Shown here: one piece after another, positions 55,641 to 57,983 of the stretch
Position numbering within the stretch: the first letter of the stretch is position 1
Layout: the number at the start of each line of letters is the position of its first letter
Source: Escherichia coli
GTDB taxonomy: Bacteria; Pseudomonadota; Gammaproteobacteria; Enterobacterales; Enterobacteriaceae
NCBI RefSeq assembly: GCF_044324875.1
Contig: NZ_CP172185.1
Length of the DNA stretch: 64,000 nt
Direction: 5' to 3' (one strand)
Notes under the pieces: generated by a model
Told to the model about the DNA's origin: nothing
Databases searched by the model: none
Seen by the model: only the letters and a program-made list of their open reading frames with translations
Made by a program: the position numbers and the translations under genes

Positions 55641-56813
55641 TTATTTATTTCCTTTTGAACGATTATGCGTAACGCAAAGCATTTCGCAATTATCAGGCTT
55701 ACTTTCACCCCCCTTACTCCATGCGGAAACATGGTCGGCTTCCATTTCTTTCAAAGCCCAGATTTTTGTTTTATTGGCATTATCTGAACTGGCGCAAAGG
55801 GGGCAGTTTGAAATACCTTGTTGCTCCGCTTTATCTGTTTGCCTTTTGTAGGCTTGTTTTTTAATTTTTTCATCAAAAAAGCGAATGTTTAATAAACGTT
55901 TATCAGATTGACCACCTAACACATATTCCCAGATGCCTTTAATGTTTTTTACACTATCATCCTGATATAATTTATTGATTTGCGTGGCTAATTCACCTGG
56001 ATTGTATGGTTTGTCTTTATAGGTTTCGTATAAACGCCCCCATTCCAGTCCGCACATTTCTTTTTTTACCTCGGTAAATGTGGTGTTAACCCAGTCAATC
56101 ACGCTATTGAAATAGGTTTTTAATTCCTTGATATTGTCATCATTACGATGGGCATTCATGTATTCGCTGATATTTCCTTTACTGACCCAGTTTAACGCAC
56201 ATTCTAAAATTTCCTGGCGTTTAACATTACCTTTGATGTAAGCACTCCATTTTTGCACATTTGAATTAGCAGAATTACTGAATTCTGCTTTTGCCAGTGT
56301 AACAAATTTGCCCGAATACACCGCATTCAATAATTCTTGTTCATTTAAAGGGACGCCAGTAATATTAATCGTTTTAAACCATTCTTTAATTTCGCTTTCT
56401 GTACCCTTACATTTGTAAATCAGCAAAGTGGTTTGTTTGATTTTCTCTTGTTGGTCTTGCGGTAAACTATGGAAATAGTATGGCGTGCCTTTATCATCTA
56501 TAATGGCGAATTTTCCGGTAACAAACCGCCCAATACTGGTAATGCGCTGCTGACCATCCAGTACTTCAAATGTATCTTCTGTATCTTTGTCAGGTTGATT
56601 AAAATAAATCAAACCGAGCGGATAACCTTTTAATACTGACTGGATAACTGCCACATCTTTCTTACCGTCTGCATAAATATAATTGCGTTGATATTCGGGC
56701 TGAATGGTAAGCTTTCCTGATAAACCAAACAAGCCTTTTCCCTCCAGTTCATTATAAACAAATCCATCGCACAATTGTTCAACGGTGATTGATGTATCTA
56801 ATTGTGTTTTCAT
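55641..56813 (-). CDS. DUF262 (ParB-like, DGQQR motif) N-terminal domain fused to a C-terminal HNH nuclease; putative restriction/effector component
   Basis: ...[16 protein letters not shown]... near N-terminus; C-terminal CPLC...[33 protein letters not shown] matches the HNH pattern C-x2-C...DH..p.skGG...N..LC..HN..K. Confidence 0.8.
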
Positions 56814-56828
56814 TTTTCACTTTTCCTT

Positions 56829-57983
56829 TTATTTATTTTGTGGATTGATGTGTTTAATAAGAATGCGTCCATAAGTACGTTTGCCGTTAATAACTGTACA
56901 CCCACCCCTATCTTCAGAATGTTGAGAATAATTTAAAATCTCCAGTATCTCTTCGGGAGTTGATGCTCGTGTATTACCACTTGCTTGCCAAATAATTTCA
57001 AACTGTTCAGGACAATATTTATCCAAAAAGCTAATTGGCACGCCCATAACTCCTGCATAATCGCTAGGAATACCGTTAGTTCTGGGCACTTCAATAGCAT
57101 CATAATTGTCATATGCCTGATAAGCGTTAGGGTCATTGATAATTTGTTTGTTGTATTTTAAATTATCCGCCATAGACATTAGCTGTAAAGATTGATGCCG
57201 TCTGCCGTGTTCAATATTGGTAAACCAACAAGAGTTACCCAAACGAGTATAATCACCTATATATCCTAGACGCTCCGCTTTTTTCTTATCAGCTTCCCTC
57301 ACATCAGCACCTTGTGGTACAGCAAAAACCATATCATTACCATTCCCAGTAGCACCCAACCAAATTTTATTTCCTTTGATAAGTGGAAAAATCTCTTTAT
57401 AAGTAATAGCATTCATATTACCGATAACGGCAAACTGCTTTTTACCTTCCATAATCCATGCCATAAATTCGCGAAACAGCGAAAAAGGCGGATTGGTGAT
57501 AATTATGTCGCTTTCATCGCGTAGAGCTTTGATTTCATCACTACGAAAATCGCCATCACCCTGCAGGTATTGCCATTTAATATCTTTAAAATCAATTACA
57601 CCATCGTGATTACTGTCTTCGGTTAGCGTGTAAATTTTGCCATGTTTCTGGCTTTTATCACTGTCGTATTGTTCACTTTCGCTTTCAAATAATGATGGCT
57701 GATAAGCTGTGTTTAACTGTTTGGATTGATGAGCGTAGCTGGTACTGATGAGCTTCTTTAATCCAAGTCGTTCAAAGTTTTGTGCAAAATAAAGTGTGAA
57801 ATTGCTCCACTCGGGGTCATCACATGGTAAGAGAATGGTTTTGCCACGAAATACGTCTTTATTGAAATCAAGATAGGCATTCATCTCTTTTTCAATATCA
57901 TGGTATTGGGTGTAAAATTCGTCATTTTTGGCTTTTTTTGCAGCAGAAAGATTACTGTTTTTGGCAGAAATATTCTTTGACAT
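56829..57983 (-). CDS. N6-adenine DNA methyltransferase, EcoRI-methylase-like
   Basis: ...NDEFYTQ... near N-terminus and catalytic ...DIIITNPPFSLF... (NPPF motif IV); GGAGG RBS; 15 bp upstream of and co-oriented with the DUF262-HNH gene. Confidence 0.8.
   Translation of the reverse strand: MSKNISAKNSNLSAAKKAKNDEFYTQYHDIEKEMNAYLDFNKDVFRGKTILLPCDDPEWSNFTLYFAQNFERLGLKKLISTSYAHQSKQLNTAYQPSLFESESEQYDSDKSQKHGKIYTLTEDSNHDGVIDFKDIKWQYLQGDGDFRSDEIKALRDESDIIITNPPFSLFREFMAWIMEGKKQFAVIGNMNAITYKEIFPLIKGNKIWLGATGNGNDMVFAVPQGADVREADKKKAERLGYIGDYTRLGNSCWFTNIEHGRRHQSLQLMSMADNLKYNKQIINDPNAYQAYDNYDAIEVPRTNGIPSDYAGVMGVPISFLDKYCPEQFEIIWQASGNTRASTPEEILEILNYSQHSEDRGGCTVINGKRTYGRILIKHINPQNK

Follow-up and report, generated by a model that had tools for sequence, protein, structure and literature searches.

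Is a DNA methyltransferase gene that is followed directly by a gene for a DUF262–HNH nuclease one half of a restriction-modification (R-M) system, and if so, which of the two proteins decides where DNA is cut? This question is raised by a two-gene cassette at positions 55641–57983 (minus strand) of a 64,000-nucleotide stretch of an Escherichia coli genome (RefSeq assembly GCF_044324875.1, contig NZ_CP172185.1), the whole of which is referred to here as the window. On the basis of open reading frame (ORF), Pfam, and PADLOC assignments, the cassette consists of a gene for an EcoRI-family N6-adenine DNA methyltransferase of 384 amino acids (56829–57983, minus strand), proposed to be the modification and specificity subunit, and a gene for a 390-amino-acid nuclease with a DUF262 (ParB/GmrSD_N) domain and an HNH domain (55641–56813, minus strand), proposed to be the restriction subunit. 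The two are separated by a 15-bp spacer (56814–56828, minus strand), in which a ribosome-binding site for the nuclease, AAAGGAAAAGTGAAAA, can be read before the ATG. An earlier interpretation made from the letters of this DNA alone (the sequence-only reading) had described such a pair, and the coordinates, lengths, 15-bp spacing, co-orientation (both on the minus strand), and motifs that it gave were reproduced; its domain calls were likewise borne out by a Pfam search, in which PF13651, PF03235, and PF01844 were all matched.

The reading that we favor, at a probability of roughly 55%, is that of an R-M cassette in which the methylase sets the specificity of both activities and a nucleoside triphosphate (NTP)-gated DUF262–HNH subunit performs the cutting. 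Profile libraries already assign the pair to type II R-M, and the anatomy of the pair points to a mechanistically distinct and very widespread R-M variant.

The methylase was found to match the Pfam family EcoRI_methylase (PF13651) over residues 11–378 (E = 1.9e-131; model positions 1–344 of 345) and to contain the motifs KNDEFYTQY (residues 19–27) and IIITNPPFS (residues 160–168). It is 46% identical to authentic M.EcoRI, as found beside R.EcoRI on plasmid pMB5823_5, and is matched near full length by the PADLOC-DB profile MTase_II (PDLC03297; E = 7.2e-96). An AlphaFold2 model of the protein (mean predicted local distance difference test, pLDDT, 84; predicted template modeling score, pTM, 0.82), with lower confidence in the two variable cassettes described below, returned no solved structural relative at E ≤ 1e-3. 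Neither the methylase nor the nuclease has a sequence-related solved structure, and NCBIfam gave no model for either.

The nuclease contains a predicted DUF262/ParB-like NTP-binding domain at residues 36–166 (56316–56708, minus strand; PF03235, E = 3.3e-21), with the DGQQR signature at residues 86–90, and an HNH zinc-finger nuclease domain at residues 337–390 (55644–55805, minus strand; PF01844, E = 2.9e-6), with the pattern CxxC...DH...N...CxxH-N. In an alignment of 39 nuclease sequences, D86-G87-Q88-Q89-R90, C340, D360-H361, N375, C380, and N384 are invariant, and a QPEYQR block and the zinc ligands are also invariant or nearly so. The PADLOC profile REase_II (PDLC03418) matches the protein over profile positions 17–372 of 372 (E = 3.1e-86), and the NsnA (E = 1.9e-29) and PD-T4-2_A (E = 1.7e-14) profiles match residues 32–250. 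Besides GmrSD_N, Pfam detected only the PF01844 HNH domain and a weak PF14279 match in the nuclease, with no DUF1524 (PF07510), and none of the type IV profiles of PADLOC matched it. Superfamily 2 (SF2) helicase/ATPase motifs and a PD-(D/E)xK nuclease of the type III Res kind were not found either; Pfam and PADLOC gave only DUF262 and HNH. For the AlphaFold2 model of the nuclease (pLDDT 82.6; pTM 0.48), the best fold match in the Protein Data Bank was BrxU (7p9k; E = 5e-4, probability 0.97), followed by ParB structures with CTP or CDP for the N-terminal part and by Gme HNH/McrA for the C-terminal part.

Full-length matches to REase_II and MTase_II in PADLOC-DB mean that the pair is not uncatalogued, as the sequence-only reading had suggested it might be. 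The operational PADLOC definition of a type II system is a pair of adjacent MTase_II and REase_II profile matches, which is what is seen here; since the profiles match both proteins, an automated tool would therefore report "RM type II". The PADLOC papers do not state how the R-M profiles were constructed. These labels favor a classical type II (IIP or IIS) system, in which the nuclease recognizes the same site independently of the methylase and the variable methylase segments are surface loops with no effect on specificity. Many type II systems likewise consist of two genes of which that for the methylase comes first, and the helical middle of the nuclease (residues 170–330) could be a recognition domain. 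The fold matches and the GmrSD_N assignment of the N-terminal domain, on the other hand, would suit a type IV nuclease of the GmrSD/BrxU kind directed against modified phage DNA, for which the methylase would be a separate co-traveler, possibly with a phase-variable epigenetic or anti-restriction role.

Relatives of the nuclease are abundant and unusually uniform. A word-indexed search matched more than 8000 nuclease-family clusters, the top 120 of which were all full-length at 69–100% identity; 713 clusters (at the 50% identity level) reach E ≤ 1e-30, and at least 552 species-representative genomes encode a full-length relative. The best 80 of these relatives (65–76% identity to the window nuclease) span Proteobacteria, Bacteroidota, Chloroflexi, Spirochaetes, Actinobacteria, Patescibacteria, and one Woesearchaeote metagenome-assembled genome (MAG). 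An EcoRI-family methylase was found immediately upstream, on the same strand, in 73 of the 80 fetched loci—that is, in 73 of 76 informative ones, the contig end being too near upstream of the nuclease in the other four for the presence of a methylase to be judged—and an intact nuclease with no adjacent EcoRI-family methylase in only three (L076, L011, and L069). The junction between the two genes is typically a 4- or 1-nucleotide overlap or a 1-nucleotide gap elsewhere, as compared with the 15-bp gap in the window. Plasmids of Firmicutes and Actinobacteria carry the same pairing in a nuclease subfamily of 38–44% identity; it is also found on a Moraxella plasmid of 9 kb, and in the Flavobacterium phage vB_FspS_laban6-1 the two genes form an insert. 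The gene pair is accordingly ancient and moves as one unit. Such adjacency across phyla, with overlapping stop and start codons and extending to a subfamily of about 40% identity, argues against a type IV nuclease with an unrelated methylase beside it; moreover, if the nuclease were methyl-dependent, the methylase joined to it would expose the host to self-attack, and the GmrSD-defining DUF1524 is absent.

At some of these loci, additional genes were observed. In a Moraniibacteriota MAG (L030, 1867–4688), nucleotidyltransferase-like, membrane, and Fic-like genes lie between the methylase and the nuclease, an insert that looks like another defense module nested inside the cassette. An unannotated ORF with the motif IE[IV]RSSFP occurs immediately upstream of the nuclease in Otariodibacter (L066, 4120–4998), between methylase and nuclease, and in Neisseria perflava (L011, 97–681), where no methylase is visible; these ORFs had no PADLOC match and were treated as insertions, and their product could be a second nuclease. 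On a Pediococcus plasmid (CP146864.1; L082, 316–1182), an extra 288-residue "HNH endonuclease signature motif" protein follows the pair.

Single-chain forms of the pair also exist. P0271 (717 residues) is a methylase–nuclease fusion with intact NDEFYT and NPPF motifs and full-length matches to both PADLOC profiles; it was confirmed at the DNA level on a 61.7-kb contig, with no separate methylase beside the fusion gene. Of two further fusions, P0150 (688 residues), only 42% identical to P0271, has a degenerate motif IV, and P0272 is represented by a partial sequence. Retention of the fused form across that divergence is a further point against the type IV explanation, as is the fact that a PADLOC type IV profile was matched only marginally and only in the HNH region of P0271. 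IS1 interrupts the nuclease gene of E. coli 2015C-3121 beside an intact methylase gene, which is the decay typical of R-M systems. Because the linkage is deep and translationally coupled, because fusions exist, and because the nuclease is the first to decay, the two proteins appear to form one R-M system. The proposal of a Type II-like system with a ParB-fold nuclease in the sequence-only reading is thus upheld in one part: conserved synteny, coupling, and fusions favor an R-M pair over a type IV enzyme. The "Type II" part fits poorly in its plain sense, given swappable methylase cassettes and a constant nuclease.

These cassettes were delineated in an alignment of 61 methylases from the fetched loci. 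Variable cassette 1 of the window methylase (residues ~207–252; 57228–57365, minus strand) belongs to class 4 of at least 13, and variable cassette 2 (residues ~332–372; 56868–56990, minus strand) to class 11 of at least 26. The classes are discrete, with a bimodal distribution of identities (60–95% within and 20–30% between classes), and the cassette 1 and cassette 2 classes assort independently of each other and of the backbone: cassette-2 class 23, for example, is paired with cassette-1 classes 1, 2, 4, 5, 7, and 11, and two methylases of one class have backbones hardly more alike (identity 0.698) than two of different classes (0.663). Discrete, internally conserved, and recombining classes are the mark of functional modules rather than of drifting loops, contrary to what the classical type II explanation requires. 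M.EcoRI provides a second example, its cassette 1 falling into class 10 and closely resembling the cassette 1 of L019-type methylases, across only 46% overall identity to the window methylase. Because M.EcoRI shares this class with distant members, the cassette moves as a module independently of overall similarity, and because the window methylase has a cassette 1 of class 4 rather than class 10, its site is likely not GAATTC. In the M.EcoRI translation, Cys223 lies at the end of cassette 1 and His235 just after it; the former is reported to photo-crosslink to the target position and the latter to affect DNA bending and specificity.

In contrast to the cassettes, the nuclease is essentially indel-free. 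Its median pairwise identity is 74%, as compared with 69% for the methylase backbone without the cassettes; with the cassettes removed, an initial impression of far slower evolution of the nuclease had to be revised. Nuclease identity is the same whether or not the cassette classes agree (0.746 for the same and 0.741 for different cassette-1 classes; 0.737 and 0.741, respectively, for cassette 2), no 15-residue window of the nuclease differs, and the per-column adjusted mutual information is at most 0.16. In this sequence test, which assumes that the cassettes set specificity, no nuclease segment was thus found to track the methylase cassettes in the manner expected of a type IIP or IIS enzyme. 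The same is seen within E. coli: in STEC2018-553 and 2015C-3121, both cassettes are replaced by unrelated sequence while the remainder of the methylase is essentially identical to that of the window, and the nuclease is 96% identical to that of the window, equal to the lineage that keeps the window cassettes. The methylase modules are discrete and recombine, a pattern typical of domains that determine specificity, and the nuclease does not respond to them; independent recognition of the same site by the nuclease is therefore unlikely, and because the nuclease would then be without a recognition module matching the specificity of the methylase, it most likely works with the methylase. Conservation of the nuclease would by itself fit a family of isoschizomers, and a constant nuclease needs no special explanation if it is of type IV. 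The absence of covariation between nuclease and cassettes, together with lineages that swap cassettes and keep the nuclease, nevertheless makes a classical type II system unlikely.

At some loci, two EcoRI-family methylases with different cassettes occur, either in tandem (L045, 2648–4981) or fused (P0299, 632 residues), as expected if the target sites there are asymmetric. The flanking DNA of the 80 carrier genomes (649 kb) was also searched for avoided palindromes that might reveal the recognition site; only a generic pattern emerged (GGCC, CTAG, and GATC lowest), AATT was not depleted (observed/expected ratio 0.92), and, there being no control set, this approach was dropped.

Repeat tracts at the methylase gene provide another line of evidence. 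In the window, a perfect heptamer repeat, (TGCTTGT)17 or, on the coding strand, (ACAAGCA)n, lies between ccdB and the methylase start at 58034–58152 (Tandem Repeats Finder, 17.0 copies, 100% match), and in E. coli the tract is situated ~50 nucleotides upstream of the methylase start codon. As compared with the 17 copies of the window, the other E. coli carriers (L001 and L086–L090) have 14, 12, 11, 9, 2, and 2 copies; the record of strain TUM1886, with 14 copies, is otherwise 100% identical to the window. A leader ORF of 44 residues, MLIQ(ATSNKQQ)n..., reads through the heptamers (58026–58160, minus strand), and its stop codon falls 42 nucleotides before the methylase ATG if n mod 3 = 2 and 1 nucleotide before it if n mod 3 = 0, the latter form being annotated as a 46-residue protein in strain 2013C-3033. 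The leader ORF may therefore be a translational-coupling switch; repeat-mediated switching of this kind is unusual for E. coli. At loci of Alysiella and Acinetobacter, a heptamer repeat of different sequence is found at this position, and the contigs are interrupted within it; further repeat tracts occur at a few other loci. In Moraxella macacae, a G12 tract (L005, 4347–4358, at about residue 180) frameshifts the methylase, and the downstream nuclease is intact.

Solitary nucleases, a frameshifted methylase, and repeat tracts would be lethal in a classical type II system and harmless if the nuclease needs its methylase, and it is because of this need that solitary nucleases and methylase-OFF variants would be tolerated in the favored model. 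Along with the fusions, the existence of such nucleases and of hypermutable methylase tracts counts against the classical arrangement. A type IV nuclease would accommodate the solitary copies and the methylase-OFF variants equally well, and repeat-driven variation of methylases is known from phasevarions. When this is set against the linkage and the fusions described above, we nonetheless consider the type IV explanation rather improbable. The vaguer alternative of the sequence-only reading, a methylation-sensing arrangement, found no specific support.

For the specificity-setting methylase and its dependent nuclease, the following mechanism is proposed. We infer an m6A (N6-methyladenine) activity, a specificity set by the cassettes, a complex of methylase and restriction subunit, NTP gating, and cleavage of unmethylated DNA. 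The EcoRI-family enzyme would methylate adenine at a sequence set by the two exchangeable cassettes, marking the host DNA as self, and the DUF262–HNH protein would be a restriction subunit that either forms a complex with the methylase or is licensed by it. The methylase would locate the unmethylated site, the ParB-like DUF262 domain would serve as an NTP-dependent switch, and the HNH finger would cut. The logic would be that of type III or type IIG/IIC systems, and neither that of classical type IIP nor that of modification-dependent type IV enzymes such as GmrSD and BrxU. Taken further, the pair might represent an unrecognized class of R-M system that hundreds of species of bacteria and some of archaea possess, in which a specificity-less DUF262–HNH nuclease is directed by a methylase whose two exchangeable cassettes give rise to many specificities. 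Such a class would be a functional analogue of type III made of wholly different components and the missing link from classical R-M to the type IV enzymes GmrSD and BrxU, and its expression would be phase-variable, by way of heptamer or homopolymer tracts, in some hosts, including E. coli. This broader claim is advanced tentatively, at somewhat less than even odds.

Several points weigh against the mechanism. The role of the cassettes in specificity is one that we infer from their modular pattern and position in the protein. Methylase backbone and nuclease co-evolve to a modest extent only (Mantel r = 0.205; 19 of 2000 permutations). In M. macacae, the frameshift may reflect a misread homopolymer in a draft genome rather than phase variation, and for the three solitary nucleases another methylase, encoded at a distant locus, could confer protection. 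Furthermore, cataloguing in the style of PADLOC and REBASE labels the nuclease as an ordinary type II restriction endonuclease, and a characterized member may exist in REBASE, which was outside the scope of the search.

In full-text literature searches with that scope, no paper was found on a DUF262–HNH nuclease paired with an EcoRI-family methylase. The pair is absent from the GmrSD phylogenomics paper, the 2025 R-M review, the Bibersteinia methylome paper, and the 2025 Menshen/DUF262 survey. The last of these covers GmrSD, SspE, PD-T4-2, Dazbog, and Menshen, and merely speculates that DUF262 proteins near methylases "may target non-modified genomes".

The cassette is rare in E. coli, being present in 6 of 5426 complete genomes and always in the order ccdA-ccdB-methylase-nuclease. 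In the window, it forms part of the cargo region of an integrating conjugative element (ICE; markers TIGR03756/03757, TraG-N, and iha), and the discrete setting described by the sequence-only reading was confirmed, GC content being 0.36–0.38 over 55500–58500 as compared with ~0.59 in the ICE transfer genes to the left. The chromosome of E. coli TUM1886 is 100% identical to the window over the cassette stretch; RefSeq names the two products there "adenine-specific methyltransferase EcoRI family protein" and "HNH endonuclease family protein", and places ccdA and ccdB directly upstream of the methylase, in agreement with the toxin–antitoxin neighbor noted earlier. By this annotation of the identical record, the ccdB-family toxin gene lies at 58212–58535 and the ccdA-family antitoxin gene at 58535–58783 in the window, both on the minus strand. 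The match of the toxin to the NCBIfam CcdB equivalog is weak (26 bits, against a cut-off of 147; E = 7.9e-6), and CcdA had no NCBIfam match. A consensus scan called a promoter-like site upstream of ccdA (58846–58818, minus strand). A sigma-70 promoter, TTGACA...TAATAC, read by eye between ccdB and the heptamer tract was dropped, as the scan called none there.

Stabilization of the pair by ccdAB, as the sequence-only reading had proposed, is plausible because ccdA, ccdB, and the pair are linked in each of the six E. coli carriers. That linkage, the occurrence of the pair on small plasmids, an ICE, and a phage, and its rare and patchy presence in E. coli would also suit a selfish addiction module, in which post-segregational killing stabilizes the ICE together with ccdAB and there is little role in defense. 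However, linkage to ccdAB was seen only in E. coli and not at the other loci examined, and addiction describes a selective benefit that is compatible with an R-M mechanism. As an explanation in its own right, it stands only a slim chance.

Other features of the neighborhood are as follows. A GC-rich, terminator-like hairpin (55605–55624) separates the nuclease stop codon from a convergent gene for a paralogue of type B (zinc-independent) ribosomal protein L31 (55271–55534, plus strand), an odd passenger for a conjugative element. To the right, two ORF-like stretches (60924–61166 and 63734–63994, both on the minus strand) encode near-identical peptides, ...RRCKTDHPKALLTGQM(E/K)HWWSPERRGPPEGVPHRPHGTLVVAEAT, and indicate a repeated element flanking integrase-domain and zinc-finger genes at 61883–63583. 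Past the right edge of the window and a few kilobases from the cassette, this ICE encodes the anti-restriction protein ArdA (L001, 21952–22461) and contains a frameshifted gene for a type III R-M endonuclease (L001, 25104–26601).

If the favored reading is correct, the pair would be a fifth way to build an R-M system, from a ParB-type nucleotide switch. The ParB-type fold is otherwise known from chromosome segregation clamps and modification-dependent type IV enzymes. The pair would show how self/non-self discrimination can be built by combining a classical methylase with a nuclease of type IV character, would provide a naturally modular two-cassette methylase scaffold for the reprogramming of specificity, and would account for a cassette that at least 552 species carry and that occurs on ICEs, small plasmids, and phages; the heptamer tract would represent an unusual repeat-mediated R-M switch in E. 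coli. The modular anatomy is hidden by the current labels, "HNH endonuclease family protein" in RefSeq and "type II REase" in PADLOC.

The pair was compared with known systems. With the EcoRI system, it shares the methylase family (PF13651, 46% identity), and cassette 1 of M.EcoRI belongs to the classes of the family, whereas R.EcoRI is a 277-residue PD-(D/E)xK enzyme of type IIP with its own recognition of GAATTC, in a system with the order R then M. With Menshen (NsnABC) and PD-T4-2, it shares a profile match that spans the ParB-DUF262 domain and the following DNA-binding region described for NsnA; in place of the NsnB ABC-ATPase and the NsnC effector, neither of which is present here, there is a fused HNH effector and a methylase partner. 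GmrSD, BrxU, and SspE, type IV and PT-sensing nucleases, have, like the window nuclease, an N-terminal DUF262 ParB/Srx fold with DGQQR and a C-terminal His-Me finger, BrxU (7p9k) being the best structural match, and NTP-regulated nuclease activity is established for GmrSD and BrxU. These enzymes, however, contain DUF1524, are 550–770 residues long, depend on modification, and have no cognate protective methylase, whereas the window nuclease contains the PF01844 HNH domain, is 390 residues long, and belongs to a family that almost always follows a methylase.

The type IIG/IIC enzymes (such as MmeI, Eco57I, and the BcgI family) resemble the fused relatives P0271 and P0150, in which one recognition element must serve both activities because methylase and nuclease are in one polypeptide, and they also change specificity by module exchange. 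The window pair consists of two separate genes rather than the single polypeptide of these systems, known IIG enzymes combine an N-terminal PD-(D/E)xK nuclease with gamma-class methylases of the N6_Mtase/Eco57I type, and no IIG enzyme with a DUF262–HNH nuclease was found in the literature searched. Compared with type III systems (EcoP15I and EcoP1I, Mod plus Res), the components differ: Res combines an SF2 helicase-like ATPase and a PD-(D/E)xK nuclease, whereas the window protein has a ParB/DUF262 NTPase fold and an HNH finger, and Mod is a beta-class methylase with one central target recognition domain, whereas the window methylase is of the EcoRI family and has two separate cassettes. The organization is nevertheless alike, with the methylase gene preceding the nuclease gene, a variable methylase region beside a conserved restriction subunit, and repeat tracts at or in a methylase gene whose OFF states are tolerated; as in type III, the methylase of the pair would probably supply the specificity of cleavage, and the restriction subunit would be expected to be NTP-dependent.

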